From Bacillota bacterium (lineage in GTDB: Bacteria > Bacillota > SHA-98 > UBA4971): a DNA stretch of 64,000 nt. Position 1 is the stretch's first letter; each line of letters opens with the position of its first letter. The translations under genes were made by a program, and so were the position numbers. A model generated the notes under the pieces. That model was given only the letters and a program-made list of their open reading frames with translations. It ran no database searches and was not told the DNA's origin. Below, in pieces: positions 8,360-61,856 of this stretch. The stretch spans positions 25,665 to 89,664 of the forward strand of contig JAAZLO010000028.1 in the NCBI GenBank assembly GCA_012689375.1. Direction: 5' to 3'.

Positions 8360-10701
<2,342 letters not shown>

Positions 10702-25003: not shown

Positions 25004-25008
25004 TTTTC

Positions 25009-31941: not shown

Positions 31942-31987
31942 GCACTAAACCTCCTGCCTACAAATTCAAAAAGATTATACCATACTG

Positions 31988-32102
31988 GTGACAGGGGCGG
32001 TGGGGGCGGTGACAGGGGGACGGGGTTACTGTCACATCCTGTACATCAACCGGGTGGTTTATGTGACAGTAACCCCGTCCCCCTGTCACGTCCCCCTGTC
32101 AC
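31988..32102. repeat. Perfect 29-bp inverted repeat plus GTGACAGGGGG iterations in the tsaE/ade divergent intergenic region
   Basis: GTGACAGGGGGACGGGGTTACTGTCACAT at 32009-32037 is the exact reverse complement of 32061-32089, with a 23-nt loop. Additional GGTGACAGGGG copies lie at 31988 and, as the reverse complement, at 32092-32102. Each arm is itself palindromic (GTGACAG...CTGTCAC). Confidence 0.7.
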
Positions 32103-32120
32103 CAAGGGAGGGAGAAATTT

Positions 32121-33923
32121 ATGTCACTGTATCCGATAAGAAAACATCTTTACGAGATAGGCCATGAGCTGGTAGCTACTGCAACAGGAAGAACCCCGGC
32201 TGATGTCATTATTCGATCCGGGCGTTTAGTTAATGTTATAACACGTGAGATCCTTGATGGGCCGGATATTGCAATACGTTTTGGGCGGATTGCCCTAGTC
32301 GGGGATGCCTCAAAATGCAGAGGTAGGGATACTTTGGTTATAGATGCAAAGGGATCTTATCTGGTCCCGGGGTTTCTTGATGGTCATGTCCATATAGAAA
32401 GCAGCATGGTTACAGTGGGCCAGTTTGCCAAAGCAGTGCTCCCCTATGGAACCACCGCCGTCTTTATGGACCCCCATGAAATTGCAAATGTTCTTGGTAT
32501 GAAAGGGATCAAGTTAATGATAGAGGAGGGAAAAAATCTCCCGCTCAAAGTTTATACTACAATGCCGTCATGTGTCCCTGCGGCCCCGGGTTTTGAAGAT
32601 ACAGGAGCAGAAATTACCCCGGATGATATCAGTACTGCAATGGCCTGGGATGAAGTAGTGGGTTTAGGAGAAATGATGAATTTCCCCGGGGTTTTAGCGG
32701 GGGATCCTGATGTACACAAAAAAATTGCATCCACGTTGAAGGCAGGTAAAGTCGTCACTGGTCATTATGCTGTCCCTGATCTCGGTCCGAATTTATCCGG
32801 TTATGTATCGTGCGGTATTTTATCTTGCCACGAATCTGTCACTTGTCAGGAAAGCCTTGCTAAACTCAGGTTGGGGATGTATGCAAAACTCAGGGAGGGT
32901 TCAGGCTGGAAGAATATTAAAGAAACCATCAAAACCTATACTGAAGCAGATGCTGATCCTCGTCGTATAGTCTTGGTTACAGATGATGTCCATCCTGATA
33001 CCTTATTAACTTTAGGCCATATTAATCATGTGGTGAAACGGGTAATTGAAGAAGGAACACAGCCTATTACAGCTATTCAAATGGCTACCATTAATACTGC
33101 AGAATGTTTCGGGATGAGCCGCGATTTAGGAAGCATTACTCCGGGTAAGTTTGCGGATATTTTATTTATTGAGGATCTTGCAAATCCGTATCCTGAAAAG
33201 GTTATGGCGGACGGGAAGGTAATTGCTGAAAACCGGAAGATGCTCATGGAAATCCCGGTAGGGACCTACCCCAGGTATGCAACTAAATCTATGAATCTTG
33301 CGCGCTCTGTAGTCCCGGATGATTTTTATATTAGTTCAGGATCCCCGGGTAAAAGTGTTAGAATCCGGGTTATACAGGTTATAGAAGGCCAAGCCATAAC
33401 AAAACAGGTAGAAGTGGGAGTCTGCTCCGATAAAAATGGAGGAATTAATGCATCTCGCAATCAGGATTTAGCGAAGGCGGCTGTTATAGAAAGGCATAAG
33501 GGCACAGGTAAAATAGGGTTGGGTTTTGTTAAAGGGTTCGGGCTTCAATCCGGGGCAGTGGCTTCTACAGTCGCCCATGATAGCCACAACCTGCTTGTCA
33601 TGGGTATGGATGATGATGATATGGCTGTTGCAGCCAATACTTTGGCTGAAGTCGGCGGTGGAATGGTTGTTGTAAAACGGGGTGAAGTGATAGGCCTCCT
33701 TCCTTTACCTGTTGCGGGTCTTATGTCAAACAAACCGGTAGAGGAAGTCCAATTAAAGGTAGAAAGCCTGGCACAGGCATGGAAGGATTTAGGGTGTACC
33801 CTGACATCACCCTTTATGACTATGGCCATTCTTTCCTTACCTGTCATCCCTGAACTTCGCCTGACAAACCGAGGATTAGTTGATGTTGAAAAGTTCTGTT
33901 TTGTTCCTTTAGTGATTAGCTGA
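32121..33923 (+). CDS. ade: Adenine deaminase (amidohydrolase superfamily)
   Basis: 600 aa. Metal-binding block VPGFLDGHVHIESSM, and ADGKVIAEN in the second domain. The architecture is typical of Ade. Confidence 0.8.
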   Translation: MSLYPIRKHLYEIGHELVATATGRTPADVIIRSGRLVNVITREILDGPDIAIRFGRIALVGDASKCRGRDTLVIDAKGSYLVPGFLDGHVHIESSMVTVGQFAKAVLPYGTTAVFMDPHEIANVLGMKGIKLMIEEGKNLPLKVYTTMPSCVPAAPGFEDTGAEITPDDISTAMAWDEVVGLGEMMNFPGVLAGDPDVHKKIASTLKAGKVVTGHYAVPDLGPNLSGYVSCGILSCHESVTCQESLAKLRLGMYAKLREGSGWKNIKETIKTYTEADADPRRIVLVTDDVHPDTLLTLGHINHVVKRVIEEGTQPITAIQMATINTAECFGMSRDLGSITPGKFADILFIEDLANPYPEKVMADGKVIAENRKMLMEIPVGTYPRYATKSMNLARSVVPDDFYISSGSPGKSVRIRVIQVIEGQAITKQVEVGVCSDKNGGINASRNQDLAKAAVIERHKGTGKIGLGFVKGFGLQSGAVASTVAHDSHNLLVMGMDDDDMAVAANTLAEVGGGMVVVKRGEVIGLLPLPVAGLMSNKPVEEVQLKVESLAQAWKDLGCTLTSPFMTMAILSLPVIPELRLTNRGLVDVEKFCFVPLVIS

Positions 33924-38937: not shown

Positions 38938-39435
38938 GCAACAGTCCCTCCCTTAATTATTCAACAGTGAATATTAGATTTCAACTGCGAACTCATTGTA
39001 TCTTCCATGTTGTGAATTATATGCAACATTCGACGCTTTGGATAAGTTGCCTTTATTTTCTTATATTAACACAGATATAAATTTTCCCATAAGAAAATTC
39101 GCAAGATCAGTCAAACGCTTCCTCCATATGGCATAGTTCTTTATTGAAATTTTAAATTACCCTACTGCTTTTTGCAGGAGTTTAGTCCGGGCCGGATCTT
39201 TTGTATTTAGGGGTTAACCTCCGTTTTATCAAAGTATTGAGACGGTATTGGATATTGTTGCTTGCTCTTGCAATAGGAAACGGACTTTTGGAAAATTCGG
39301 AGACTGCTTGCCGCAAGATTCTTTCGCGGGCAGTACAATTTCCGTCAGGTTCCTCCCGTATGTCTATGGTAGTATCGCAGCAGTTACCTAAACATAGGAC
39401 AACCCATTGTTGTTAAATGAAGGAGGAGCCGGTAA

Positions 39436-42005
39436 TGGACAAGGAAGTCAGGCGTACGATCTCCCATGGTTCCGGACGCACTGTTAATTTTGGCCGGAAC
39501 AAAAAATATCAGGTATCTCCCCGCAGTGCTGAACAAGGGCATACAATAAAAAATATCAGCCGAACCCGAAATTTTTGGGTGCACGCACTTTCGCCGGGAG
39601 CAGTACTTTGCGGTCTTATCGGAATGATTTTGGGACGGGCGAAGTTTTTCGGTATCAACGCCCCCTTCTGCCTGGCATATTTAGGAGTGATTACCGCGTT
39701 CCGTGGCCCCTTTGCACCCTTAGCTGCATTCGGTAGTTTTTTTGGGATGGTAGGGCCGGTTTTGGGATCAGATATGATATGGTCTGCCGTTCCATTGGTT
39801 TTAGTAGTGATTTCAGCACGGATTTTTTCCCGTAAAGTAGAAGCCAGACCTTTTGTATTACCCGTAAGTATAATGGTATCCGGTTTTATTATTCCTCAGG
39901 TTCTGAAGATAGTTATCGGTGTTTCTTTGCCTTCAGCAACCATAATCGTATTAGAGGCTTTTATAGGCGGGCTTTCAGCTGCAATTTTCAGTTGGGGCGG
40001 AGTGGGCCGGGGGTTTTCATCTTTACCGCGGCGGGGTGTTCCGGGTCCTGAACAAGCAGCCTCATTTGGGTTGTTATGCGCAGGGATCACTATGGGACTT
40101 TCAGGTATTGAGGTGTACGGGATATCTTTAGGAGCAGTAGCGGCAGGCATCGCAACGACTACTATAGCCTATTCAGGGGGTATAAGTTATGGAGCAGCGG
40201 CAGGGGCTTTAACCGGGCTGACATGTGCGGTTTCAGGTCAGGGGTTGGCCCCTATTGTAGGCGCATATGCCCTTGGTGGGCTTTTAGCAGGCAGTCTGCG
40301 AAGCTACGGTAAATTTGCCACAGCTGTCGGGTTTGCGTCAGGTGCGGGACTCTTGGTATTTCAAATATCCGGAAGGTACGAGGTGCTGATGTTTATTGCG
40401 GAGTTAGGAATATCAGGCGCTATATTCCTCTTTATCCCAAGAAAAAGCCTGCGGGCTATGGCAAGGCTGTTGCCTGTTTTCCAAAAGAAATCCGGGGACA
40501 GTGGGGGGGCCTACGCCAGAAGGGTTCAACAACTTCTGTCTAAGAAGCTCTTGGGTTTTTCCCAAGTCTTCGGTGAGCTTTCATCCATGTTAAAGCAGGT
40601 TCCATATGATCCGGAACTTACTGAACAAGCAGATGTTGCCCATATACTTCACGAAATTTCTTCATCTGTATGCAGCGGATGCAGGGCTTATCTTTTCTGC
40701 TGGGGGGATTCTTTCCATAGGACTTTTAGGGATGTCCTCAATCTTGTGGCTCTTGCCGAATTAAAGGGTGTAATAGAAATGTCAGAAGTCAAATCCCAGC
40801 TTAATTGGAAGTGCCTTAATGTACCGGGATTGGTTGCCGCTGTAAACGGATCCACAGGATCTTACAAACAAAACTTGGCATATGCTAGGCGGCTTACTGA
40901 AGGGAGGCATATGTTTTCTGGACAATTACAGGGAATTGCAGGTATCCTAGACAGTCTGGGAGAGGATGTTTGGGCATGTGTTGAAATGGAGACTGGTTCC
41001 GAGAAAAGAATTATCCGTGAGTTGTCCCGTCTTGGCCTTGGGATTACAGAAGTTAGTGTTGTGGCAGGAAGGAGAGGGCGGTTGGATGTCACAGTTAAGA
41101 AGGCGGCATGCTGCGGGGAGCGGGAATGTAAAAATGCAGTAGGGCCTTTAATTTCCCGGCTACTTGGTCGAAACCTGGAAGTATCTAAGGTAAGATGTGG
41201 AAACAGGGGGGGGCAACCTACGTGTGAAATAGTGTTCTCCCAGGCAAAAGTATATAGAATTACAGGCGGGGTTGCGTGTTGTGCCAAATATGGTGCTGAT
41301 ATTTCAGGTGATGCCCATTCTATGTTAGAGCTTGCCGATGGTAGAGGGGTCTTTATTATCAGTGACGGCATGGGGACAGGGAGGGGAGCCGCAATAGAAA
41401 GCTCTACTGCAGTAAGTATGCTGGAAAAGCTACTTGAGGCGGGTTTTGATGATGAGTTTGCAGTAAAAACTGCAAATCTGATTTTACTCCTCAGATCTCC
41501 CGGGGAATCCTTTGCTACTTTGGATGTGGCTACCATTGATATGGTTACAGGAGAGGTCTGGTTTATAAAGGCAGGTTCACCCAGAAGTTTTATTAAACGC
41601 GGGCGCCAGGTAAGAGTTATTGAGTCTCCATCCTTGCCTGCAGGGCTTTTCGATGCAATAGAAATCGAAAGGACCCGGCGAAAATTAAGTGACGGGGATC
41701 TTTTGGTTATGGTTAGTGACGGAGTTTTAGATTCAACCTCCCGTCTTCGTAGTTCCGCCGTCCCTGTATATGCGCCTGACGATTGGATAGAGAGGCTGAT
41801 CACAACGATTACCACTGAGCGTCCTGATGAAATAGCCGGATTAATTCTTAACCGTGCAAAGCAGTACGCAGGTGGGAAAACTCCTGATGACATGACTGTT
41901 CTTGTAGTCAGGATCCATAAGAGAGGAGCCGGTATCGGTAATTTAAAGAAATTTCCCACTGATGATACAATGCCGAAATTGAGTAATATAGGCTTGTCCA
42001 TATAA
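39436..42005 (+). CDS. spoIIE: Stage II sporulation protein E (PP2C phosphatase with polytopic N-terminus)
   Basis: About 10 N-terminal transmembrane helices, a central regulatory region, and a C-terminal PP2C domain (GDAHSMLEL...IISDGMGTG...VSDGVLD). I placed the start at the ATG 7 nt after GGAGGAG. The tracker's earlier ATG lies inside the ribosome binding site. Confidence 0.85.
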
Positions 42006-47760: not shown

Positions 47761-48594
47761 TTATACAATTTCAATTTGGAGGCTGAGCCTGACCCCAGTT
47801 CCTGTATTGACTGCTGTAACAGTATAGCTCCCTGGGGAAACAGGGATTCCCTTATTTGTTGTCTGATTCCATATTTGAATGTGAAGCAGACGTTGGCCTG
47901 CACCTAAAGTAATCCTTTCTACGGCGAATGTAAAAAAGCGCCCTTCAGACCAACCCCAAACCACTCTTCCTGCCCGTGTTACAATAAAATCATATCTTTG
48001 GCTTGATCTGTAAGTAATAGATACAGGGTTCCCTGAAACATTTGTCTTGCTGAGGCTGAGCCGTATAGGCTCACCCTTTGGAGATGTTGTCCTATTAACC
48101 ATAAAAGTATGCCTAATCCCATCCCTGATCACAGATACCTGATTTGCCCCTGTGACAGGTGGCCCAGGCGGTCTCGGAGGAGCTGGCGGTGCAGGGGATG
48201 GGGTAGATATAACTACAGTAGGTGTTACAGGGACAAATAATACCTGTCCTGTGGATATGATGTTATGATCCGGGATTCTATTCACTCTTACCAGAACTTG
48301 CACTGTTGTTCCGAAACGCCTTGCAAGACCTGTTAAAGTATCCGCAGGCTGTACCATATAAAGCCTAAACCCCTCAGGTATTGCAATGGAAGGAGGCATT
48401 GGATCCGGTATTGTCGGTGCAGGTGTCAGAGTCACGGGAGGTGTGCCTGATATCGGTACTTGAAGCACTTGCCCTACAAAAATAAGATTTGGATCCGGAA
48501 TATTATTGGCTGAAATTATTGCATCCACCGTAGAACCAAGCTTCTCTGCGATTAAAGCAAGGGTATCACCGGATTGGATAATATATGTGATCAT
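47761..48594 (-). CDS. LysM (x2) peptidoglycan-binding protein with a C-terminal BsuPI-like (intracellular proteinase inhibitor fold) domain
   Basis: Two LysM repeats (YIIQSGDTLALIA... and YMVQPADTLTGLA...) separated by Pro-rich linkers. The C-terminal ~110 aa match the BsuPI pattern (SQRYDFIV..., W.W, PGSYTV). ATG start with an AGGGGGAG ribosome binding site. Confidence 0.65.
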   Translation of the reverse strand: MITYIIQSGDTLALIAEKLGSTVDAIISANNIPDPNLIFVGQVLQVPISGTPPVTLTPAPTIPDPMPPSIAIPEGFRLYMVQPADTLTGLARRFGTTVQVLVRVNRIPDHNIISTGQVLFVPVTPTVVISTPSPAPPAPPRPPGPPVTGANQVSVIRDGIRHTFMVNRTTSPKGEPIRLSLSKTNVSGNPVSITYRSSQRYDFIVTRAGRVVWGWSEGRFFTFAVERITLGAGQRLLHIQIWNQTTNKGIPVSPGSYTVTAVNTGTGVRLSLQIEIV

Positions 48595-48769
48595 ACTGAC
48601 TCCCCCTTGGTGAGACGTCTTCACCATATGTTATTCCGGTATTTGCCGGATGTTACCATATATTAATATTAGGATTCATAGTCAGGGGCCGTGAAGGAAT
48701 CGTACATCGGAAGCAGAACTTAAACCACAATGGTCGTGTCCGGTTAATTGTAAAAGGGGATTTCATCTT

Positions 48770-49465
48770 ATGTCAGTGAAAGGAAGAACAAATTACGGTT
48801 TCGTCAGCTTTTTTATTATCTTTACACTTGTTGTGCTTATTATTTCAAGCTTTGTCTTAAAAATAAATGCCGGTAGCCCTGGGGATGACGCCTTGGGTAT
48901 ATTAAAGGCTTCGCGCTCCCCTGCCTTGGAAAGGGAAGTGTTGGATATAGCCAGGGCCTCTGTAGCCAGAGTCATCCTGGGGGAAACAACAGAACTGAAA
49001 CTTAAAAGTCCTGATCGGATTATAACAGGCCAACTTTGTAAAATACAGGCCGGAGTGTTTGTTACGTTAATAATTGACGATAAAATCAGAGGATGCATGG
49101 GGCGGATTTATCCGGCTGAATCCAATTTAAAGGATGAGATTGCTTCAGCCGCGGGAATGGCGGCTACTATGGACACACGGTACCCTCCGATTAGTGCGGA
49201 GGAAATATGCAAATTGGATTTTTGTATATCGATAGTAGGCAGGATTAGAAGGGAAAGCCCAAATATCCAAGTTAATCCGCGGCTTGAAGGGATATTAGTA
49301 AAAGCCTGCGGACTCTCTGGGGTGATTCTTCCGGGGGAAGCGAAAACCGCAGCATATCAAAGGGGATGGGCTTTGAGAGAAGCCGGTATAAAGTCAGGTG
49401 TTCCATATGAATTATATGTTTTTGAAACGGAAAGGTTTGGGAAAACTCTACCGGTCAGGGGGTAA
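48770..49465 (+). CDS. AMMECR1-domain protein with N-terminal membrane anchor
   Basis: The AMMECR1 motifs GVFVTL and IRGCMG (the LRGCIG equivalent) are present, preceded by one transmembrane helix. Confidence 0.55.
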   Translation: MSVKGRTNYGFVSFFIIFTLVVLIISSFVLKINAGSPGDDALGILKASRSPALEREVLDIARASVARVILGETTELKLKSPDRIITGQLCKIQAGVFVTLIIDDKIRGCMGRIYPAESNLKDEIASAAGMAATMDTRYPPISAEEICKLDFCISIVGRIRRESPNIQVNPRLEGILVKACGLSGVILPGEAKTAAYQRGWALREAGIKSGVPYELYVFETERFGKTLPVRG

Positions 49466-49471
49466 ATTCGC

Positions 49472-52400
49472 ATGAAAACGGAGTTTTGCCGAAAGACTTT
49501 TTTAACAGGTATTATTATTGCTCTATTGATAGGAATCGCTTTTACTGTCAAATCGTTTCCAGTTAACGGCAAATCAATTAAAAATTATATGTATATGCAT
49601 GTGGATGATCGCGTCCTTTCATTTTCTGAGAATGCTTTGCTTTATGTAAGGGGGAAAGGGTTGACAAGGATTGACTTCCGTATATGGAAGTTCAATCCGA
49701 ATCTTTATTACAGAAGCCATGGGTCATTATCCCTATGCCTGGAGCGGATGCCGGAAAATGCAAAGCTAATCCAGGAATTTTCAGAATACCCCCGCCTGAA
49801 AAAAGCTGGTGAGGAATTTTCCGTGAATATAAAAATTCACCCTGAGGGCCCAGGGGGGTACTTGATTAAGGCCCGGGATAATGAAGGGCGTGAAGTATGC
49901 GAATGGTTTCTTGTAACTGAACTTGGGCTTATAACAAAACAAAGCCAAGATAAGCTTTTAGTGTACGCCTGCGCGTTTGATAAAGGTGAACCACAAACCG
50001 GTGTGGATATTACAGTATATGACGGGAGTATGGAGGTAATCGGGAAAGGTATTACCGATGGTAACGGGTTCTATATCCTAAATGCAAAAGATATCCCTGA
50101 AGGGGGTATTTCTATAGTCGGTACCAAGGGGGACCCCGGAACAGAGAGTTTTGCCGAAGTAAAGTCATGGAATTATTGGGAAAATGCTGGCTATAATGTG
50201 TACATTTATACTGACAGGCCTATATACAGACCTGGTCAGAAAGTATCATGGAAAGGTATTCTCAGGGAAAGTACCGGTGGGGGGTTTAAGGTTTTAGGTG
50301 GGGAGGAAATCAGTGTTGAAATCAGGGATCCCAAAGATGCATGTATATATAAAATAGAGGCTGAAACCAATAATTACGGGTCCTTCACTGGAGATGTTAT
50401 ATTAGGGGATGAGCCATCTTTAGGTACTTATAGGGTCCTTGTCAAAGTCAGGGGGAGTGTCCATTATGGCCGATTTAAAGTAGCTGAATACAGAAAACCT
50501 GAGTATGAAATTAAAGTGAATACTGACAAGCAGGTGTATATTGCAGGTGATGATATATCCTGTAAAATTGAGGCTGCTTATTATTTTGGGAAACCTGTCC
50601 CTGATGGGAAAGTAAAATATGCAGTTTATTCTCAAACGTATTACCGGCCTTTTCGTTCTACAGAGGACCTGGGCTACTTTTCAATTACAGATGATGATTA
50701 CGGGTATTATGGGGAATTGGTGGATTCAGGGGAAGGAGTAACGTCAGGGGACGGAACCATGGGATTTACTATAAAGACAGGAAGGACAGAAAGGACCAAA
50801 AGGCTGTTTATTGAGACAACAGTTACAGACGAAAGTCATAGGGAGGTTACAGGCAGGGCTTCAATAATATTAGCCAGGGGCCTTTTTGATTTAACGGCCC
50901 AACCTACAGAATATATTGTATCACCGGGGGGTTCGGCGGAAATTCATGTAAAAGGGGTTACCCTTGAAGAAAAGCCTTATTCCGTAGAATTCACGTGGCA
51001 ATCCATGAGAATCACATGGGATGGTAATAAATCAATAAGGTGGAAGGAGCAATCCGGAGTAGCGACCACAGGTATCGACGGTAAGGGTGTCTTCGAATTT
51101 ACTCCGGAAGAGGAAGGTTCGTATGTGGTGGAAGTATCCGCGACTGATGCCAGAGGTAACCATATAGTTGAAGAAGCATACATCTGGGTGGCAAGCAGTA
51201 CAGGCAGGCAATGGAATTACGGAGGAACTGAAATTGAAATAGTGTCTGATAAGGATGTTTACGAATTAGGAGATACAGCTAAAATCCTTGTGAATACGAC
51301 TCTTGACGATACTTGGGCAATTATTACTGTGGAAGGCCGGGATCTCCTTTTTTATGAAGCATTAAAGCCTACAGGATGCATGCGCCTGTTTGAAATCCCG
51401 ATAACTGAGGAATTCTGTCCTAATTGTTTTTTTACCGTGACACTCGTTCGGGGGAAGCAGTTTTATTCCCGGGAAAAAACTATATATGTCTCAATGAAGG
51501 ATAAGTTCCTAGATGTATCCATAATCCCCGATAAGGAAATATACAGCCCCGGTGAAAAGGGTTCTTATACAATTAAGATCCGAGATCACAAAGGTCGCCC
51601 TGTTCAGGCAGAGCTTTCCTTGGGTGTTGTCGATGCATCTATATATGCCGTACAAAAAGAACTTGCTCCTGATATCAGAAAAGCATTTTACGGTTCGGTT
51701 TGGAATATGACAGTTACAAACTATTCCTTCCCTCAATGGTATTTTGGGGGTGCAGATAAAGAGGGGGATGCATCAGAGATTCGTAAGGATTTTCCTGATA
51801 CTGCCCTTTGGGAGCCTATAATTCTCACTGACAAAAAAGGCACGGCGAGAATCAATTTCCAAATGCCTGATTCCTTAACTACGTGGAAAGCCACTGTACG
51901 GGCGCATACCCGGGAAACTCAGGTAGGGTTTGCTACAAATGATGTAATAACTACAAAGGATTTCATTTGCAGGCTGTCCACACCAAGATTCTTTACTTTG
52001 GGTGATACGGCCTATGTATCCACTATTATCCACAACTATACTGAAAACAGGGTGAATGCGGAGGTTAAACTTAGGGCTGAGGGAATAACGCTATGTGACA
52101 AGGATAAGCGCACTGTGGTACTGTCTGCAGGAGAGCAGGTATCCCTGGATTGGAAAGTTATATGTGATAAAGCAGGGATAGCAAAATTCACCGTCTTAGC
52201 TAAAGCAGGGAGAGCACAGGATGCCTTAGAGCTCAGTGTACCCGTAATCCCTTTCGGTAGAAGTATAAGAGAGTTTAAAAGCGGTGAAATAGGAGATAGC
52301 CCAGGAAATAACGATAAAGCACATATTGAATTTAATATCCCTGAAGATGTTCTGGATAATACGACAGATGTTGAAGTAAGGCTTGCCCCGTCAGTGGCAG

Positions 52401-54508
52401 CAACTGCATTGGGGGCACTGGAATATCTTACATCTTACCCGTATGGGTGTGTTGAACAAACAATGAATTCATTTCTTCCTAATATTATTGTATCTGGGAC
52501 CCTTGGGGAACTTGGCATTGAAATACCGGAAATTACGAAAGATCTTCCGAAAATGGTTGAGGCGGGCCTTGCCCGAATATACAGGTATCAGCATTATGAA
52601 GGCGGTTGGGGTTGGTGGGAATTTGATAAGCCTAATTCAAGGATGACAGCCTATGCAGTATATGGCCTTGAACTTGCAAAAAGAGCAGGTTTTAATGTTG
52701 ATGAAGAAGTGTTTATGCGAGGCAGAAGGGCCTTAGGGAATTTCCTTGATACCCCGCGGAATGTTGATGATCTCATATATAATTTATTTGTTATGTCTGA
52801 AACCGGGGAAAAAGCTTTGCCTCGTCTTGATGAGATGATTCTGAGAAAAAGGGAGGCCTCTAATTATTCCCTTGCCCTTCTTGCTTTAACTCTGAAAAAC
52901 ATAGGCAGACAGGATGATGCAGCACTATTATGCAAGGATCTGCTCAGGCTTTCCCGGAGTGACGGGATCAGTACCTACTGGGAATCTTCTGTCAACGAAT
53001 GGTACTGGGCTGATAATCGTGTTGAAACAACTGCATACGCACTTTTAGCTATGCTTTCTATAGATCCCGGTAACCCCAGGGCTTCTCAGGTTGTGCGGTG
53101 GTTATCAGGGGAGCGTTTGGGTATAGCCTGGAATTCCACAAAGGACACAGCCATTGCTGTTATGGCTTTAACTGAATATATGAAGGTCCATGGGGATTTA
53201 GGATCGAATGTATCCGCTGCGATAGAACTTAACGGGAGGCGGGTTAAGGGGATAAAGTTCACCCAAAAGAATTTATGGGATAAAGAACAGATAATCAAAA
53301 TAGATCCGAGCCAGTTAGTGAAAGGGAAAAATGAACTTATTATTGAGAAAACAGGGGAAGGAAGGCTCTATTATTCCGTTGCAAGTAAATACTATACACC
53401 CTCTGAAATTATTATGCCTGAAGAAGGCGGCCTTAGGGTAAGGCGGGGTTATTATTACAAAACACAGGATGACAGTGTTTATGAGCCTGTCACAGGCCCT
53501 GTGAAACCAGGGGATGAGATAATAGTCAGGATTACTATAAAAACGGAGAGTCCCCAAACGTATATTATGATTGAGGATCCTGTCCCGTCAGGATTTGAGG
53601 TAGTGGATACGTCTTATGATATTTACAGTTGGGATTTTTGGTACGGCCGTAAGGAAATCCATGATACGAAAGTAGCCGTTTTCAGTGCTTATCTTGAAGA
53701 AGGTGAGAATGAAATAATATATTCCATCAGGGCGGAGCGGCCGGGTGAATATAAAATAATGCCTACAAAAGCTTGGGGAATGTATGCGCCTGATATTTAC
53801 GGCAGCTCGGAAAGTTCAGAAATAGTATGCCAAGTACCGGTATTGGCTGCATTTTCCACCACTGTTAAAGAATCTGAATTAAACCGGAATCATAATATAG
53901 CCCTTGCTTCTTCTGTAGTTAATGGATCTGTTATTCAGCCCGGAGAGATATTTTCCCTTGACAAGGCTCTCGGACCAAGATCGGAATCCAATGGTTATAA
54001 AAATGCCCGTATTCTTTCAGGGGGGAAAAGCTTGCCCGGGACGGCAGGGGGGATCTGTCAAGTATCCACAACGCTGTACAATGTTGCTTTAAGAGCAGGC
54101 TTGGAAATAATTGAACGCCACCCTCATTCACAGCCTATAGACTATGTATCTCCTGGGCTTGATGCTACAATCAGTGATGAAGCCGGGCTTGATTTACAAT
54201 TTAAAAACCGGTTAGATGTACCTCTCATCATTAATATGCATATAGAGGGTGCAAGGCTTATTGCCGAAATAAAAGGGAAAGTTTCTAAGCCTCAAAACGT
54301 ATACATTACAACTGAAATCCTAAACGTGGAGAGGCCTCGCCTTTTGGGGGACAGTTCCGATGATTTTAAGGTCTCAGGCGGGAGAAATGGAATTCGGGTT
54401 GCCGTATGGCGAACTATGGATACCTGTGGTACAATTCAACGGGAGCTTATATCGGAGGATTATTACAAACCTATCCATGCGTTGGCATGGGGTATGAGAC
54501 AATATTAA
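49472..54508 (+). CDS. Bacterial alpha-2-macroglobulin-family protein (thioester-type) with a C-terminal VanW-like domain
   Basis: 1678 aa with an N-terminal signal anchor. The thioester region YPYGCVEQTMNSFLPNII (compare human A2M, PYGCGEQNMVLFAPNIY) is embedded in MG-domain-like beta-rich repeats. The last ~200 aa carry VanW-type blocks: PGEIFSLD, GGICQVSTTLYNVAL, ERHPHS and GLDATISDEAGLDLQFKN. Confidence 0.7.
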   Translation: MKTEFCRKTFLTGIIIALLIGIAFTVKSFPVNGKSIKNYMYMHVDDRVLSFSENALLYVRGKGLTRIDFRIWKFNPNLYYRSHGSLSLCLERMPENAKLIQEFSEYPRLKKAGEEFSVNIKIHPEGPGGYLIKARDNEGREVCEWFLVTELGLITKQSQDKLLVYACAFDKGEPQTGVDITVYDGSMEVIGKGITDGNGFYILNAKDIPEGGISIVGTKGDPGTESFAEVKSWNYWENAGYNVYIYTDRPIYRPGQKVSWKGILRESTGGGFKVLGGEEISVEIRDPKDACIYKIEAETNNYGSFTGDVILGDEPSLGTYRVLVKVRGSVHYGRFKVAEYRKPEYEIKVNTDKQVYIAGDDISCKIEAAYYFGKPVPDGKVKYAVYSQTYYRPFRSTEDLGYFSITDDDYGYYGELVDSGEGVTSGDGTMGFTIKTGRTERTKRLFIETTVTDESHREVTGRASIILARGLFDLTAQPTEYIVSPGGSAEIHVKGVTLEEKPYSVEFTWQSMRITWDGNKSIRWKEQSGVATTGIDGKGVFEFTPEEEGSYVVEVSATDARGNHIVEEAYIWVASSTGRQWNYGGTEIEIVSDKDVYELGDTAKILVNTTLDDTWAIITVEGRDLLFYEALKPTGCMRLFEIPITEEFCPNCFFTVTLVRGKQFYSREKTIYVSMKDKFLDVSIIPDKEIYSPGEKGSYTIKIRDHKGRPVQAELSLGVVDASIYAVQKELAPDIRKAFYGSVWNMTVTNYSFPQWYFGGADKEGDASEIRKDFPDTALWEPIILTDKKGTARINFQMPDSLTTWKATVRAHTRETQVGFATNDVITTKDFICRLSTPRFFTLGDTAYVSTIIHNYTENRVNAEVKLRAEGITLCDKDKRTVVLSAGEQVSLDWKVICDKAGIAKFTVLAKAGRAQDALELSVPVIPFGRSIREFKSGEIGDSPGNNDKAHIEFNIPEDVLDNTTDVEVRLAPSVAATALGALEYLTSYPYGCVEQTMNSFLPNIIVSGTLGELGIEIPEITKDLPKMVEAGLARIYRYQHYEGGWGWWEFDKPNSRMTAYAVYGLELAKRAGFNVDEEVFMRGRRALGNFLDTPRNVDDLIYNLFVMSETGEKALPRLDEMILRKREASNYSLALLALTLKNIGRQDDAALLCKDLLRLSRSDGISTYWESSVNEWYWADNRVETTAYALLAMLSIDPGNPRASQVVRWLSGERLGIAWNSTKDTAIAVMALTEYMKVHGDLGSNVSAAIELNGRRVKGIKFTQKNLWDKEQIIKIDPSQLVKGKNELIIEKTGEGRLYYSVASKYYTPSEIIMPEEGGLRVRRGYYYKTQDDSVYEPVTGPVKPGDEIIVRITIKTESPQTYIMIEDPVPSGFEVVDTSYDIYSWDFWYGRKEIHDTKVAVFSAYLEEGENEIIYSIRAERPGEYKIMPTKAWGMYAPDIYGSSESSEIVCQVPVLAAFSTTVKESELNRNHNIALASSVVNGSVIQPGEIFSLDKALGPRSESNGYKNARILSGGKSLPGTAGGICQVSTTLYNVALRAGLEIIERHPHSQPIDYVSPGLDATISDEAGLDLQFKNRLDVPLIINMHIEGARLIAEIKGKVSKPQNVYITTEILNVERPRLLGDSSDDFKVSGGRNGIRVAVWRTMDTCGTIQRELISEDYYKPIHALAWGMRQY

Positions 54509-56277: not shown

Positions 56278-58788
56278 GTGAAGCCAGATTTATCGTTACC
56301 GGAACCTGAGTTATCACCGAATGCCATAACTGTGTTGGAGAGCCGTTATTTAAGCAGGGATGAGTCAGGGAACGTTATAGAGACCCCCAAAGAGATGATG
56401 TGGAGAGTTGCAAAGAATATTGCACTTATGGATGCATTATATATCCTTGCGGAAAATAAGATAAAGCCGGCAAACCCCCGGGAATTGCCTGGTTTAGAAG
56501 AATTCTCTATACCTGTACCGGAATTCTCCCAGTGGGATTGGGATGCACTCAATCAAGGGTTCCGGGATTTGGCATCCGAAAGCCTTGTAGATGTAACATG
56601 GGAGGATATAAAAGCAGCGGTGGATAAAAACATGTCATTGCTTGCTCAAACGGCGGTAACGTTTTACTTGCTTATGGCAGAATGTAAGTTTCTTCCGAAC
56701 TCGCCCGCATTAAGTAATGCCGGAAGGGAGCTCCAACAGCTTTCTGCATGTTTTGTTCTGCCGATTGAAGATTCTATGATAAGTATATTCGAAACTTTAA
56801 GGAACGCAGCCTTGATTCATAAATCCGGGGGAGGAACAGGTTTTTCCTTCAGTGAACTGCGTCCGAAGAATGATGTAGTAAGAACAACAGGGGGAGTTGC
56901 ATCAGGCCCGATATCCTTTATGAAGGTGTTTAATGCAGCCACGGAAGCAATAAAACAGGGCGGGGTCAGACGTGGTGCAAATATGGGGATATTACGTGTG
57001 GATCACCCGGACATTCTTGAGTTTATCACTGTAAAGAATGATATAAATGAATTAACAAATTTTAATATATCTGTGGCAGTTACTGAAGCCTTCATAGAAG
57101 CCCTACAATCAGACAGTGAATATGAACTTATAAATCCCAGGAATAAGGAAGTCAGCGGAACTCTCCGGGCAAGGGATGTCTTTGATCTGATAGTACAATC
57201 TGCATGGAAAACAGGAGAGCCGGGTATTGTTTTCATTGATCGGCTTAATCAATTTAATCCTACCCCTAATGTAGGCATGTATGAAGCAACAAATCCCTGT
57301 GGCGAGCAAATGTTACTACCGTATGAGGCATGTAATTTAGGTTCTATTAATGTGGGTAAATTTGTAACTGAAGTAGATGGTTCCGCAATGGTTAACTGGG
57401 AGAGTTTAAGAGAAACGGTTCATGTGGCCATCCATTTTTTAGACAATATGATTGATGCAGGCATGTACCCGCTAGAAGAAATCTCAAGAATGCATAAGGG
57501 TAATCGTAAAATTGGCCTTGGTATAATGGGGTGGGCTGATCTTCTTATGCAACTTGGGATTGCGTATGATTCTGATGCCGCAGTGGATCTTGCCGAAGAT
57601 TTAATGGGGTTTATCCATGCAGAAAGTAGAGCTGCATCTGAAGAGCTTGCTGAGATTAGGGGGGTATTTCCTAATTGGAAAGGGAGTAGGCGGGAAGCAG
57701 AAAATCTTAGAATAAGGAATGCCACAACCACAACTATTGCCCCTACAGGTACTATTAGTATTATAGCAGGTGCGTCCTCAGGAATAGAGCCTATCTTCAG
57801 CCTTGCTTTTACCAGGCATGTGCTGGATGGGACTTCTCTTCGCGAAGTCAACCCTGTATTTGAGCGTTTATCAAAAGAAATGGGGTTCTACTCAGAGGAT
57901 TTCATGGACGAAGTCGCCCAAAAAGGTGTTTTAACGGATATTGACGGTATACCTGAGGAAATTAAAAAGGTGTTTGTTACAGCCCATGAAATAGAACCTG
58001 AATGGCATATTCGGATGCAAGCCGCATTTCAGAAGTACACTGACAATGCAGTATCCAAAACTGTAAACTTCCCTAAAGGCGCAACTCCGGATGATGTTGA
58101 GAATGTGTTTAGGCTTGCGTACGATCTGGGTTGTAAAGGCGTAACAGTCTATCGGGATGGCAGCCGGGGGGAACAGGTCCTTACTGTGGGTACGGAAGCA
58201 CCCCACATGGCAGATGATGTGCCCGGGGATGCCTATTCCCAAATGGCACCGACTGGTATTCACCACTGTATAAACGGTGTTTGGGGTAGGCTCCGCCCGG
58301 TGGACAGGCCGGCACGGTTGGATGGATTTACTGATGTCAGAGCTACCCCCTTAGGCAAGTTGTTTGTCACCCTGAATACAATCGAGGGCCACCCTATAGA
58401 ATTGTTTGCGCAGATAGGTAAGGCGGGCAGTGATATAAGTGCATTTACTGAGGCTATAGCAAGGCTAATATCGATCTCCCTTCGGTCAGGTATTGATCCC
58501 CATGAGATTGCAGCTCAACTCACGGGAATCGGCGGATACAGGAGTATTGGGTTTGGTCCCGGCAGAGTCAGATCTGTACCTGATGCCATCGGGCAATTCC
58601 TTGCCAGATACCTTAATGCATGGGAGGAGAAAACTGGCTCTGAATATATACAGGAAGGTGACGGATCTCTGGGGCAGGATACTGACTCTGCACAATTGTT
58701 CAGCTTATGTCCGTCATGTGGAACTTGGAATGTGATTCATGTTGAGGGGTGTCTCAAATGTATGGCTTGTGGGTACACCGAATGTTAA
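56278..58788 (+). CDS. nrdJ: Class II adenosylcobalamin-dependent ribonucleoside-triphosphate/diphosphate reductase
   Basis: 836 aa. The N-terminus ITVLESRYL..DE.G...E.P.EM..RVA is present, with conserved active-site Cys regions. C-terminal zinc ribbon CPSCG...CLKCMACG. GTG start with an AGGGGGAA ribosome binding site. Confidence 0.85.
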   Translation: MKPDLSLPEPELSPNAITVLESRYLSRDESGNVIETPKEMMWRVAKNIALMDALYILAENKIKPANPRELPGLEEFSIPVPEFSQWDWDALNQGFRDLASESLVDVTWEDIKAAVDKNMSLLAQTAVTFYLLMAECKFLPNSPALSNAGRELQQLSACFVLPIEDSMISIFETLRNAALIHKSGGGTGFSFSELRPKNDVVRTTGGVASGPISFMKVFNAATEAIKQGGVRRGANMGILRVDHPDILEFITVKNDINELTNFNISVAVTEAFIEALQSDSEYELINPRNKEVSGTLRARDVFDLIVQSAWKTGEPGIVFIDRLNQFNPTPNVGMYEATNPCGEQMLLPYEACNLGSINVGKFVTEVDGSAMVNWESLRETVHVAIHFLDNMIDAGMYPLEEISRMHKGNRKIGLGIMGWADLLMQLGIAYDSDAAVDLAEDLMGFIHAESRAASEELAEIRGVFPNWKGSRREAENLRIRNATTTTIAPTGTISIIAGASSGIEPIFSLAFTRHVLDGTSLREVNPVFERLSKEMGFYSEDFMDEVAQKGVLTDIDGIPEEIKKVFVTAHEIEPEWHIRMQAAFQKYTDNAVSKTVNFPKGATPDDVENVFRLAYDLGCKGVTVYRDGSRGEQVLTVGTEAPHMADDVPGDAYSQMAPTGIHHCINGVWGRLRPVDRPARLDGFTDVRATPLGKLFVTLNTIEGHPIELFAQIGKAGSDISAFTEAIARLISISLRSGIDPHEIAAQLTGIGGYRSIGFGPGRVRSVPDAIGQFLARYLNAWEEKTGSEYIQEGDGSLGQDTDSAQLFSLCPSCGTWNVIHVEGCLKCMACGYTEC

Positions 58789-58841: not shown

Positions 58842-59732
58842 TCAGGGGTAGGCAAAGTCCATTTGTACAGTGTCTATTTTACCGTTATCAGCTACCTGAA
58901 AGACTACAGGGATTGAAGGTAAAATCCTCTTTTCAGTATTTACGGAAATTTCTGCAAGGTATATACCTTCTTTAAGAACTGGGGCATTAATATACCCGGT
59001 TATATTTCGTTTATACCCCGGCAAGCATATTGCCGGATCTAGTTGTGTATCGGAGATCACTTGCCCCAGGTGGGATTTGATAGTCGCAGTTCCGGAAAGA
59101 TTTGCGTGGATATTCCCCCGATTTTCACAGGTTGCGGAAATTTTTACGGATTTGCTCTGAGGATCCTGAAAGATTGCGACGGATGTGATGTTTGCCTGCT
59201 CGGAGATGTCCCCTTGGTTTTGGTCAGATATAACAGTAATTAAAGTAATCACTCCTATTTGGGAGCTCGTGTGGAATTCTCTCTCTGTTTTTTCATCCAA
59301 TGGTTGCCCGCGGAAAAATATGATAGGATAGATGCCCCCTGGGGCAGCCCCGTTTATCCGGGCTATGACTTTGACAGATTCTGATTCTCCCGGCATAAGC
59401 TTAAATTCGGCAGGTTCTGGAGTTAGGAAGGCTTTATCGGTTTGGGTGTTGTTTGATGAATCTGAAATAATAGGGATCCCGTTTATGTCATGACCTCCTT
59501 CACTTATGAAGCCTCTTATTTTTAAAGGGACAGGGCCTGTATTGGATACAGTTATCGGTCCGATTAAACCTTCGTCGTTCACTTCAGTCACAATATAGGT
59601 GGGGCTTATATTCATTGATACGTCTATTTTTGATGCAGCACATATTGTAAGGTGGTGGGGATAAGAAAACACCGTCAGGCTTGTGAGTACTGTCATTATT
59701 GTAACTACGGCAAACATTAATTTCCGATACAT
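58842..59732 (-). CDS. Hypothetical secreted protein with two beta-sandwich-like repeats
   Basis: ATG start with a GGAGGCGG ribosome binding site. Signal peptide. It has repeated patterns of the type F.L.PGES..V.V, in PEPAEFKLMPGESESVKV and again in its second domain. There is no membrane anchor. It begins 25 nt downstream of the preceding gene, so it is probably co-transcribed. Confidence 0.4.
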   Translation of the reverse strand: MYRKLMFAVVTIMTVLTSLTVFSYPHHLTICAASKIDVSMNISPTYIVTEVNDEGLIGPITVSNTGPVPLKIRGFISEGGHDINGIPIISDSSNNTQTDKAFLTPEPAEFKLMPGESESVKVIARINGAAPGGIYPIIFFRGQPLDEKTEREFHTSSQIGVITLITVISDQNQGDISEQANITSVAIFQDPQSKSVKISATCENRGNIHANLSGTATIKSHLGQVISDTQLDPAICLPGYKRNITGYINAPVLKEGIYLAEISVNTEKRILPSIPVVFQVADNGKIDTVQMDFAYP

Positions 59733-59757: not shown

Positions 59758-60321
59758 TTAATAGGTTTGTATGGCTGTAAGCGTCACTTCAATTTTGTAA
59801 TTGTTCCCCGGGCTTAAGATTGGAGAATCACCGTAGGAAATATATTGCCTGAATCTTATACCTATAGCTGTCCCGTCCTCATCCGTAGGTTGACCTCCCT
59901 CTATTACTAACTCTTCGTTTCCTGTTATTCGATTAAATATACTTTCTGAATCAAGTTGCCATTCCAGCGGGGAAGAGAGGATTCTGTCTGCATATTCTGT
60001 CCCGGTCCATTCTTGCATACGCCCATCCGGTGAATCGCTTTGAATTTTCAGTGCCCATTCTGTATTAGACCAGACTTTCATATACTGTAAATCAGACAGC
60101 ACGTAGGATCCGGATCTTTTAAAATCAGGAGCGATACTACCCAGCTCCAGCTCTGTAGGAAATGAAATTCCAATAGCCGGCAGTATATTACAGGTTATAG
60201 CCATAGTGGATGTGTTATTGTTTGCCGCACAAATACCCTGGCTTAGAAGAAGGGTAAATACAATCAGGAATACCCAGGGGGTTCTTATAGATCCTAAAAA
60301 CTTCAAAACATATAACTTCAT
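59758..60321 (-). CDS. Hypothetical secreted protein (first gene of a two-gene operon)
   Basis: ATG start with an AAGGAGT ribosome binding site. The signal peptide MKLYVLKFLGSIRTPWVFLIVFTLLLSQGICA is followed by an N/T-rich segment. Two W-x-L motifs (TEWALKI, LEWQLD). The mature protein is about 155 aa. Confidence 0.4.
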   Translation of the reverse strand: MKLYVLKFLGSIRTPWVFLIVFTLLLSQGICAANNNTSTMAITCNILPAIGISFPTELELGSIAPDFKRSGSYVLSDLQYMKVWSNTEWALKIQSDSPDGRMQEWTGTEYADRILSSPLEWQLDSESIFNRITGNEELVIEGGQPTDEDGTAIGIRFRQYISYGDSPILSPGNNYKIEVTLTAIQTY

Positions 60322-60557: not shown

Positions 60558-61856
60558 ATGATCATCACCCGTAAAAAGCTGATAGCTATTGTTGTAGGAA
60601 TATGTATTTCTGTAATAATTCCAATTATTACAAGCAGGCATTTATCTCTGTCTGTTACAAGCAGGATATATACGAGGTTAAATAGGTATCCTGAGATTAT
60701 ATTCATTCCGAATTATACTGAGGGACCTCATTTAGCGGCAAGATCCGCTGTATTGATTGAGGCTTTGACAGGTACAGTAATTTACGGAAAAAATGAGCAT
60801 ATGCGTATGCATCCTGCCAGTACAACGAAGATAATGACTGCCCTTCTTGCAATAGAGCTCGGAGATATTGAATCCACTGTGATTGTCAGCGAAGATGCAG
60901 CAAGGGTTGGGGGATCTTCTTTATGGCTGAGAAAAGGCCAAAAAATAAAACTTGGGGATCTTATCCGAGGGGTAATGCTTAAATCAGGCAATGATGGCTG
61001 TGTTGCTATTGCCCAACACATAGCAGGCAAGGAAGAAAGTTTTGTAAGAATGATGAATTTGAAAGCCCAAAAGCTGGGCGCAGTTAATACGAAGTTCTCC
61101 AATACCCATGGCTTAACTGAGCCGGATCATTATTCCACTGCATTCGATTTAGCCCTTATGGCCGGATATGGGTTGAAATATCCATTATTTGCAGATATAG
61201 TAAGCACACGGGAAGCAGAAATAACTATAACCCAGGGGGAATCTGACGAAAAGCGCAAGCTTGCCAACACCAATTGGTTGCTCTGGTCTTTTGAAGGTGC
61301 AGATGGTATAAAAACAGGGACTACAGCAGCTGCTGGCTATTGTCTTGTAGCATCGGCTACCCGCAACAATGTCCAATTTATATCAGTGGTGTTGGATTCA
61401 GATGCAAGATGGTCTGATTCTGCGGCACTTTTAAATTACGGTTTTGAGAAGTTCCGTGTCATGACTTTTGCCGAAAGGGGTTCCACCGTTACTGGGATCG
61501 GTGTTGAAAAAGGAATGGAACCTGAAATCAAGGTAATGGCATCAGATAATATGAGGCTTGTGATTCCACGGGATCTTTCTCATTTGTTTGAGCAAAGGAT
61601 TATCCTTGATGAACCAGTCATTGCACCTGTTTTTCCAGGCCAAACAATAGGCAGGTTGGTAATTATATTTGATGAGGCTGAATTAGCGTCAGTGGATTTG
61701 ATTGCGGAAACAGGTGTAGCCAGGTTGACATTGCCCCGTGTAATAATAAGGAAATTTAAAGATATTATGGTAGGACGAAGGTATAGGAATGCTTCAGTAA
61801 ACACCGGAGGTGAGCTATTTTGGGATTCTCTAAAAGCAAGGTTACCGATGTTATAG
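60558..61856 (+). CDS. D-alanyl-D-alanine carboxypeptidase (PBP5/DacB/DacF type)
   Basis: The SxxK motif is ASTTK, the SxN motif is SGND, and the KTG motif is KTGTT. It has the C-terminal PBP5-type beta domain. N-terminal anchor or signal. Confidence 0.8.
   Translation: MIITRKKLIAIVVGICISVIIPIITSRHLSLSVTSRIYTRLNRYPEIIFIPNYTEGPHLAARSAVLIEALTGTVIYGKNEHMRMHPASTTKIMTALLAIELGDIESTVIVSEDAARVGGSSLWLRKGQKIKLGDLIRGVMLKSGNDGCVAIAQHIAGKEESFVRMMNLKAQKLGAVNTKFSNTHGLTEPDHYSTAFDLALMAGYGLKYPLFADIVSTREAEITITQGESDEKRKLANTNWLLWSFEGADGIKTGTTAAAGYCLVASATRNNVQFISVVLDSDARWSDSAALLNYGFEKFRVMTFAERGSTVTGIGVEKGMEPEIKVMASDNMRLVIPRDLSHLFEQRIILDEPVIAPVFPGQTIGRLVIIFDEAELASVDLIAETGVARLTLPRVIIRKFKDIMVGRRYRNASVNTGGELFWDSLKARLPML

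Follow-up and report, generated by a model that had tools for sequence, protein, structure and literature searches.

An alpha-2-macroglobulin (A2M) fused to a VanW-family catalytic module is encoded by a single, unbroken open reading frame (ORF) in the 64,000-nucleotide (nt) stretch of contig JAAZLO010000028.1 of a Bacillota bacterium (assembly GCA_012689375.1), which is the window analyzed here. By homology, the first ~1440 of its 1678 amino acids (aa) form a monomeric bacterial A2M, with an array of macroglobulin (MG) domains, a bait-region domain, a thioester domain (TED) with the motif CVEQ, and the C-terminal MG10, whereas the last ~225 aa form a complete VanW module with a Cys-His-Asp triad and are predicted to be an L,D-transpeptidase (LDT). 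Comparison with other loci identifies the fusion as the Rosetta-stone form of a conserved cassette, made up of an exported AMMECR1-like protein, a thioester A2M, and a VanW protein, since its closest stand-alone VanW protein (P0121) and its nearest unfused A2M (P0015) are both encoded at loci with adjacent, overlapping A2M and VanW genes. Homology is sufficient to recognize the domain content, the intact state of the thioester apparatus and of the LDT triad, and export signals on the three cassette proteins. On balance, the modestly favored reading is that of one exported envelope protein, in which a protease trap would be coupled to an LDT that repairs or reinforces the wall. The original prediction, made from the DNA sequence, had called such a fusion uncharacterized, and no description of it was found in the searchable literature; moreover, full-text search returned no paper tying VanW or AMMECR1 to bacterial macroglobulins, and a review of LDTs does not mention such an architecture (PMC12729407).

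All Pfam domain matches of the fusion protein lie far above the gathering cut-offs (Table 1). MG, bait-region, A2M, TED, and MG10 matches follow one another along the body and a strong VanW match occupies the C-terminus, which bears out the architecture first read from motifs. These motifs are also in place, namely YPYGCVEQTMNSFLPNI, which contains C993-Q996, and the VanW-type blocks PGEIFS (aa 1490-1495), GGICQVSTTLYN (aa 1526-1537), ERHPHS (aa 1548-1553), and GLDATI (aa 1562-1567). Likewise, neither in the window protein nor in any of 14 relatives is the hydrophobic N-terminal segment followed by a lipobox Cys, and no transglycosylase or penicillin-binding protein (PBP) gene lies beside the A2M gene, in agreement with the lack of a lipobox and of an adjacent pbpC stated earlier. 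The same segment had been described as a plain transmembrane signal anchor, of which the missing lipobox stands and the anchor is unproven; in relatives, the hydrophobic segment ends in ...PLSA, followed by DS, as at a signal-peptidase site, and a cleavable signal peptide seems at least as likely as an uncleaved anchor.

The AlphaFold2 model of aa 480-1678, built from 55 sequences (mean predicted local distance difference test (pLDDT) 81.1; predicted TM-score (pTM) 0.62), shows the features expected of the A2M part: beta-sandwich domains outside an all-helical TED (~aa 975-1240) and, as the sole long disordered loop of the A2M body (pLDDT <50), aa 747-768, which are model residues 268-289. This loop sits just ahead of FPDTALW, where the A2M domain starts, and the position just before the A2M domain is that of the bait in other A2Ms. 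The core of the loop (aa 764-770) is the most variable part of the region, and distant homologues carry insertions at 760-764. In a Foldseek search of the PDB, the best match to the model is native ECAM, the A2M of Escherichia coli (5a42, E 3.6e-50, TMq 0.51), followed by native Salmonella A2M (4u48, TMq 0.50), whereas protease-activated forms of A2M fit less well (TMq 0.28-0.39). Moreover, the MG10 half of a separate model of aa 1300-1678 matches the C-terminal MG domain of both ECAM and Salmonella A2M (E ~1e-7).

The replacement of Gly by Val in the thioester motif had raised the question of whether a thioester still forms. C993-V-E-Q996 aligns with PYGCGEQNM (CGEQ) of human A2M and with TEP1, and C993, E995, and Q996 are invariant across the fused clade. 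Among the 120 closest A2M homologues, CVEQ accounts for 85 of 118 motifs, the others being CTEQ (28), CLEQ (2), CIEQ (2), and CAEQ (1), while ECAM itself has CLEQ (PMC4498604). The thioester is protected in a hydrophobic pocket made by a pair of Tyr that closely precede the Cys and by a Met-Tyr pair that belongs to the C-terminal MG domain (PMC4498604), and the corresponding residues of the window protein, Y989, Y991, and M1437-Y1438, are all present and conserved in the clade. Thus, since Val is the majority form in the subfamily, ECAM has CLEQ, and the shielding residues are kept, CVEQ is no sign of a degenerate thioester, and the sequence indicates that the bond very probably forms.

As for the C-terminal part, the earlier view of VanW as a domain of unknown function is outdated. 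Ldt4 and Ldt5 of Clostridioides difficile are VanW-domain LDTs that produce 3-3 cross-links in vitro by means of a Cys-His-Asp triad set in a novel fold, with a Cys that transpeptidation needs (Bollinger et al., PNAS 2024, PMC11348318), and VanW was counted as the second LDT family in a 2025 review (PMC12729407). In the window protein, the Pfam VanW match reaches 151.9 bits against a cut-off of 27, and stand-alone VanW proteins cover ~90% of the last 234 aa, with 40-50% identity, so the module is complete; it includes a C-terminal beta subdomain beyond the Pfam core, which is also found in stand-alone VanW proteins. The triad columns are nearly constant among 266 aligned VanW domains (C1529 is Cys in 263, H1552 is His in 264, and D1564 is Asp in 257), the further family-wide residues G1526, G1527, Q1530, D1574, and N1579 are kept, and the triad and nearly all family-wide conserved residues persist throughout the fused clade. 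The AlphaFold2 model of aa 1300-1678 is confident (pLDDT 91.8, pTM 0.83, with ~95 at the junction), which suggests that MG10 and VanW are not linked by a floppy tether. No solved structure like the VanW half was found in the PDB by sequence search or Foldseek, which agrees with the published novel fold. Matches to the NCBIfam VanW models (vanW-gen, vanW-B, and vanW-G) are only below cut-offs, that to vanW-gen having E 7.3e-19 and 68.4 bits against an equivalog cut-off of 365. A role as a vancomycin-resistance accessory protein was considered and rejected, given these scores and the lack of van genes nearby.

The association of A2M with VanW is found well beyond the fused form. A scan of GTDB species representatives with an A2M alignment gave 80 loci from many phyla, whose VanW and AMMECR1 neighbors were scored with hidden Markov models built for the analysis. 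In 11 of them (Omnitrophota, six Armatimonadota, Desulfuromonadaceae, an unclassified bacterium, Obscuribacterales, and Leptospirales), or in 8 of the 52 loci that have at least 1.5 kb of flank on both sides, the A2M gene has a VanW gene, always a separate ORF, as its immediate neighbor, and every partner VanW bears its own signal peptide. A separate VanW gene also adjoins A2M in two sister Bacillota metagenome-assembled genomes (MAGs), and in Candidatus Saganbacteria, whose A2M shares 38% identity with that of the window, the order is PBP-transpeptidase, SpoIID, AMMECR1, A2M, and VanW. VanW is present in ~1-10% of the genomes of these phyla (PMC11348318); because the gene is this rare, the adjacency is far beyond chance, as judged from the rates and not from a formal statistic. 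In a distance tree, the A2Ms linked to VanW or AMMECR1 neighbor one another without forming one exclusive clade, and both a Chloroflexota group and a DUF1175-linked Acidobacteriota group are separate from them; three unlinked leaves sit among the linked A2Ms, two of which have no downstream flank. In addition, 32 of 88 loci of this A2M family have PBP-transpeptidase and SpoIID genes nearby. The original prediction lacked this context, that is, adjacent A2M and VanW genes in many phyla and an AMMECR1-like gene upstream.

The latter gene ends, in the window, 6 nt before the A2M start codon, and the ribosome-binding site of the A2M gene, AGGGGG, lies inside its 3' end. Its product carries an RGCMG motif and, at the N-terminus, a hydrophobic segment. 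It scores 75.5 bits with NCBIfam AmmeMemoSam_A (TIGR04335), below the cut-off of 99, and the window contains no Memo or radical-SAM neighbor of the gene, so that, by its score, neighbors, and N-terminal export signal, the sequence does not qualify as protein A of the AmmeMemoRadiSam system. Counterparts of this gene occupy the position immediately before A2M in every Bacillota relative, in Saganbacteria, and in 8 of the 80 GTDB loci. Such partners, located at 8801-9823 in locus L007 and 2228-2839 in L008, and also in L011, L028, L044, L059, L080, L081, L083, and L084, have N-terminal hydrophobic segments as well, and most keep the motif R-G-C-x-G. To our knowledge, no function has been established for the AMMECR1 domain in any kingdom, nor for an extracytoplasmic AMMECR1.

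The fused architecture, by contrast with the pairing, is confined, as far as can be seen from the sequences retrieved, to one lineage of uncultured Bacillota. The survey of homologs called for earlier did find it again, in 14 protein clusters (clustering at 90% identity; 53-100% identity) from NCBI, ENA, JGI, and Logan assemblies, all in that lineage. An identical protein is on record in ENA assembly ERZ773357 (contig NODE_82), and the other 13 clusters share 53-73% identity; database labels read only 'VanW family protein' or 'hypothetical' or, at JGI, 'YfaS (alpha-2-macroglobulin family)'. When aa 1300-1678 were used as the query against a library of 1.84 billion representative proteins, MG10 and VanW were spanned by only two among the 150 best matches listed, P0013 and the fragment P0214, and both belong to the clade of the window; no independent fusion occurs among those 150, where a divergent one below ~133 bits could escape. 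The PcrA protein of the window, whose closest named relatives are 'Bacillota bacterium' MAGs, has the same ladder of identities as the fusion (100%, ~75%, ~60%, and then ~52-54% to cultured Bacilli), consistent with the fusion having been passed down vertically within a deep, uncultured lineage of spore formers.

The nearest relatives also suggest how the fusion arose. P0015, the nearest unfused A2M (Firmicutes MAG, 1619 aa), has an AMMECR1 gene before it and a separate, overlapping VanW gene after it, and P0121, the closest stand-alone VanW, comes directly after a 1580-aa A2M, whose gene it overlaps. In a distance tree, the VanW domains of the fused proteins group as a single clade, with a sister group that includes these partner VanWs, which places the window VanW, by its sequence, in a branch whose nearest members are A2M partners. 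Comparison of the junctions indicates that the fusion removed ~10 aa of A2M tail and the ~60-aa VanW leader, with its own membrane segment and Pro-rich linker, and joined ...SSEI to ...VLAAFSTT. In the unfused Bacillota relatives (L007, 14860-21400; L089, 4975-11300), Com_YlbF, two DUF3006 genes, and a metallo-beta-lactamase-fold gene come after the A2M-VanW pair, and the other strand carries the spore cortex-lytic pair of YpeB and a SleB-like Hydrolase_2, a context unlike that of the window.

Table 1. Features of the A2M-VanW gene and of its upstream partner (positions in the window; E, Pfam E-value unless indicated).
Feature	Position	Strand	Basis
Exported AMMECR1-like protein, 231 aa, upstream operon partner	48770..49465	+	Pfam AMMECR1, E 1.4e-23
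Whole A2M-VanW fusion gene, 1678 aa plus stop	49472..54508	+	
N-terminal Sec signal peptide or signal anchor, aa 1-27, MKTEFCRKTFLTGIIIALLIGIAFTVK, no lipobox	49472..49552	+	Sequence reading; N-termini of relatives compared
N-terminal macroglobulin domains bMG3 (aa 148-206), MG2 (aa 243-337), and MG3 (aa 339-387)	49913..50632	+	Pfam, E 9.8e-12, 1.2e-23, and 1.8e-06, respectively
Bait-region domain A2M_BRD, aa 588-726	51233..51649	+	Pfam, E 3.7e-14
Predicted bait loop, aa 747-768, TVTNYSFPQWYFGGADKEGDAS	51710..51775	+	AlphaFold2, pLDDT <50
A2M domain, aa 777-867	51800..52072	+	Pfam, E 7.2e-23
Thioester domain (TED), ~aa 965-1240, all-helical toroid	52364..53191	+	Pfam TED_complement, E 1.1e-26, two stretches, the last ending at aa 1236; AlphaFold2 helices 975-1240
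Thioester motif C993-V-E-Q996, after shielding Y989 and Y991	52448..52459	+	Sequence; alignment
C-terminal MG domain bMG10, aa 1320-1441; shielding M1437-Y1438 in WGMY	53429..53794	+	Pfam, E 1.3e-25
Fusion junction, aa 1442-1455, IYGSSESSEIVCQV	53795..53836	+	Comparison with L089, L007, and L008
Predicted VanW-family L,D-transpeptidase module, aa 1456-1678	53837..54505	+	Pfam; NCBIfam; stand-alone homologues; AlphaFold2
Pfam VanW core, aa 1471-1600	53882..54271	+	E 8.6e-45; profile positions 1-129 of 130
Catalytic triad codons, C1529 (54056-54058), H1552 (54125-54127), and D1564 (54161-54163)	54056..54163	+	VanW alignment

Bacterial A2Ms have been sorted into two classes (PMC3735191, PMC4498604), and, on the basis of its sequence, the window protein fits neither. 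Class 1, represented by ECAM (YfhM), has a lipobox, a CLEQ thioester with a bait, and a pbpC neighbor, whereas class 2, represented by MagD and YfaS, has a signal peptide, neither the Cys nor the thioester, and a six-gene operon (PMC3735191). Like ECAM and Salmonella A2M (SaA2M), which are also its best structural matches, the window protein appears to be an exported, monomeric thioester A2M with an MG array, a bait domain, a CxEQ TED, and a C-terminal MG domain bearing the shielding Met-Tyr pair, and it is genetically coupled to a peptidoglycan transpeptidase. However, it lacks the lipobox, has CVEQ instead of CLEQ, and shares ~17% identity with ECAM and SaA2M; its partner, in the same polypeptide, is a predicted VanW LDT, which would use tetrapeptide donors and form 3-3 cross-links, whereas the partner of class 1, PBP1c, is a class A PBP that forms 4-3 cross-links and has a glycosyltransferase as well. 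Moreover, the gene follows an AMMECR1-like gene, and the host is a spore-forming Bacillota and not a proteobacterium. With class 2 (P. aeruginosa MagD and E. coli YfaS), it shares an export signal without lipobox and an operon with exported proteins of unknown function, but its thioester is conserved, and the window contains no DUF1175 gene and no six-gene mag/yfa operon. A class 2-like trait does occur in the Acidobacteriota relatives, where a DUF1175 gene lies directly upstream of thioester-bearing A2Ms in 28 loci (L014-L074; e.g., L014 2-664 and L043 13220-16024), and many of these loci have a fused PBP-transpeptidase-SpoIID protein downstream.

The VanW half resembles Ldt4, Ldt5, and B. 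subtilis YoaR in its full VanW domain, triad, C-terminal beta subdomain, and predicted extracytoplasmic location, but has a 1440-aa A2M in place of their N-terminal transmembrane helix and PG_binding_4 domain. With the YkuD enzymes that tether proteins to the wall (ErfK/YbiS/YcfS with Lpp; Ldt03/Ldt84 with OutB), it would have in common a thioacyl chemistry on the diaminopimelate (DAP)-D-Ala bond, although the fold is unrelated and no Lpp-like C-terminal Lys box is present. Thus, the locus is best read, from its gene content, as a third genomic configuration of the theme of an A2M plus a wall transpeptidase, in which the two are here fused.

According to the favored reading, the A2M part would work like ECAM after Sec export. 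Cleavage of the bait by a foreign protease or a wall endopeptidase would make the A2M body rearrange, so that MG10 would free the TED and the exposed thioester would bond covalently to a lysine of the attacker. In turn, C1529 of the VanW part would attack the DAP-D-Ala bond of a tetrapeptide stem and hand the acyl group to a neighboring stem, forming a 3-3 cross-link that could re-stitch or reinforce the peptidoglycan at the site of the attack without new synthesis. An LDT would be the natural partner for such a repair, because only LDTs can re-join cross-links cut by endopeptidases without de novo synthesis (PMC11348318). The missing PBP1c partner would, in effect, be replaced, because a different wall transpeptidase is built into the protein. 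The logic is best read as parallel to that of the ECAM-PBP1c pair, with an LDT and with a physical link by fusion.

Several points weigh against this proposal. The neighborhood of the fused clade is wholly syntenic and says little alone, so that the argument from pairing rests on the cross-phylum pairs. The bait loop is short (~20 aa) and varies rather little among members of the clade, a possible sign of a narrow range of targets, and the window contains no markers that decide between one and two membranes. The VanW module has no PG_binding_4 domain, which is carried by about half of VanW proteins. Furthermore, the C. difficile assay detected activity for only three out of seven foreign VanW proteins and no LDT signal for the other four (PMC11348318), some VanW proteins are possibly not transpeptidases (PMC12729407), and the guard-and-repair idea for ECAM and PBP1c is itself still a hypothesis (PMC4498604).

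A bolder version of the trap-and-repair proposal, speculative and rather improbable, holds that AMMECR1-A2M-VanW constitutes a third, undescribed class of bacterial A2M system, present in at least seven phylum-level lineages, in which trap and LDT would be one damage-sensing switch. Bait cleavage and the release of MG10 would then activate the attached VanW active site or change its position, and cross-linking, or stapling of the trap-protease adduct, would occur only where and when a hydrolase attacks.

Wall tethering and joint envelope defense were the two roles first suggested for VanW, and both are retained here, the second within the favored reading and the first as a rather unlikely alternative. 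In tethering, the VanW thioacyl intermediate would be resolved onto a protein amine, thereby stapling the A2M or the A2M-protease adduct to the wall, which would be a way for the trap to stay at the cell surface if the N-terminal peptide were cleaved. The idea draws on the absence of a lipobox, the cleavable look of the N-termini of relatives, the short and confidently modeled linker between A2M and VanW, and the lack of a PG-binding domain in A2M-linked VanW proteins themselves. L,D-transpeptidases are, moreover, known to attach proteins to peptidoglycan, with Lpp, outer-membrane proteins, and OutB as examples (PMC12729407, PMC12274547), but this has been shown only for YkuD-type enzymes and never for VanW. 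The known substrates also use a C-terminal Lys box, whereas the fused protein ends in ...GMRQY and the unfused A2Ms in ...ERAE, ...ALTE, and ...RIKE, with no terminal Lys; a search limited to the A2M and fusion C-termini found no Lpp-like Lys box. In addition, both unfused proteins have a membrane anchor or signal of their own, so that a tether is not obviously needed.

It is unlikely, in turn, that the VanW part is not a transpeptidase but an L,D-carboxypeptidase, a D-amino-acid exchange enzyme, or a stem-peptide-binding module that positions the trap. Ldt4 and Ldt5 do show carboxypeptidase and exchange activities as well, and their Cys-to-Ala mutants keep some carboxypeptidase activity (PMC11348318); the four silent foreign VanW proteins point the same way, as do the NCBIfam matches below cut-offs, which imply a divergent subfamily. 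Nevertheless, the clade keeps the triad and nearly all family residues (C1529, H1552, and D1564 together with G1526, G1527, Q1530, D1574, and N1579), which argues for retained catalysis, and pure binding would not need the Cys.

Still less probable, and indeed very unlikely, is that the A2M is no protease trap but has a structural or attachment role in the envelope or the spore, based on reaction of its thioester with wall amines, with VanW as an incidental remodeling enzyme. The host is a spore former (SpoIIE at 39417-42005 and a SpoIID-domain protein at 26031-27497 on the minus strand), the bait loop is short, and thioesters react with any accessible primary amine. However, all the elements of a trap are kept, including the bait-region domain, the disordered loop, the shielded thioester, and the MG10 lock, the model matches native trap conformations, and no sporulation-specific signal was found at the locus. 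Finally, an artifact, in which a frameshift or assembly error merged adjacent genes, as a single indel could do with the overlapping genes of the nearest unfused relatives, is effectively refuted by the recurrence of the fused ORF in 14 clusters of 53-100% identity from independent assemblies and by a conserved, confidently folded junction whose lack of the ~60-aa VanW leader and of the A2M tail corresponds to a clean deletion and not to read-through.

Around the operon, Pfam identifies a LysM-BsuPI protein, AMMECR1, MatE, and a ribonucleotide reductase. The divergent gene at 47761-48627 (minus strand) encodes two LysM domains and a BsuPI 'intracellular proteinase inhibitor' domain, so that the A2M operon has beside it another protein that is wall-associated and resembles a protease inhibitor; homologues of this gene occupy the same place in all examined loci of the fused clade (L001-L006) and are absent from there in unfused relatives, which may be synteny only. 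None of three proteins, the fusion, its AMMECR1 partner, and the LysM-BsuPI neighbor, was matched by PADLOC, and a catalogued anti-phage system was rejected. Promoter and terminator scans around the operon were near the shuffled expectation, and no clear sporulation-sigma promoter was seen in the intergenic regions read by eye. An S11 D-alanyl-D-alanine carboxypeptidase with a PBP5 C-terminal domain is encoded 6 kb downstream (60558-61856, plus strand), a linkage by proximity only; S11 carboxypeptidases make tetrapeptide stems, which are the donors for L,D-transpeptidases. A LytR-CpsA-Psr (LCP) wall-polymer ligase (28273-29214, minus strand) hints at a classical Gram-positive wall, without being decisive.

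Farther away, GC skew turns from negative to positive, and the genes from all minus to mostly plus, at ~31900-32150 (~32 kb), between tsaE (31459-31941, minus strand) and an adenine deaminase gene (32121-33923, plus strand); the switch is origin-like, but has no support from dnaA or DnaA boxes and could equally be a plain divergent junction. The ribonucleotide reductase (56278-58788, plus strand) has a TSCPD domain at its C-terminus, and its N-terminal all-alpha match covers aa 11-152 on a 77-position profile, which implies an insertion of ~65 aa. Four ORFs of 167-296 aa have no Pfam match (58842-59732, 59758-60321, and 24312-25094 on the minus strand; 1650-2153 on the plus strand), the first two of which are also called as family-less genes in the source contig.

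Since 2004, bacterial A2Ms have been proposed to form a guard-and-repair pair with the neighboring PBP1c, from proteobacterial gene adjacency only. The locus described here offers independent genomic evidence for the idea of a trap plus wall repair, in that thioester A2Ms of distant phyla have partners from an unrelated transpeptidase family, VanW, and the fusion implies that A2M and VanW act at the same place and in fixed proportion. The biology of VanW LDTs may thereby extend beyond housekeeping cross-linking, to a repair role that suits LDTs, and thioester A2Ms are seen to occur in spore-forming Bacillota. The exported AMMECR1-like protein, as a conserved partner, provides a handle on a domain of unknown function, and, if the switch version were true, this would be the first functional setting for an exported AMMECR1 domain. 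As a single-chain protein that belongs to an undescribed cassette spanning many phyla, the A2M-VanW fusion makes a 20-year-old hypothesis directly testable.

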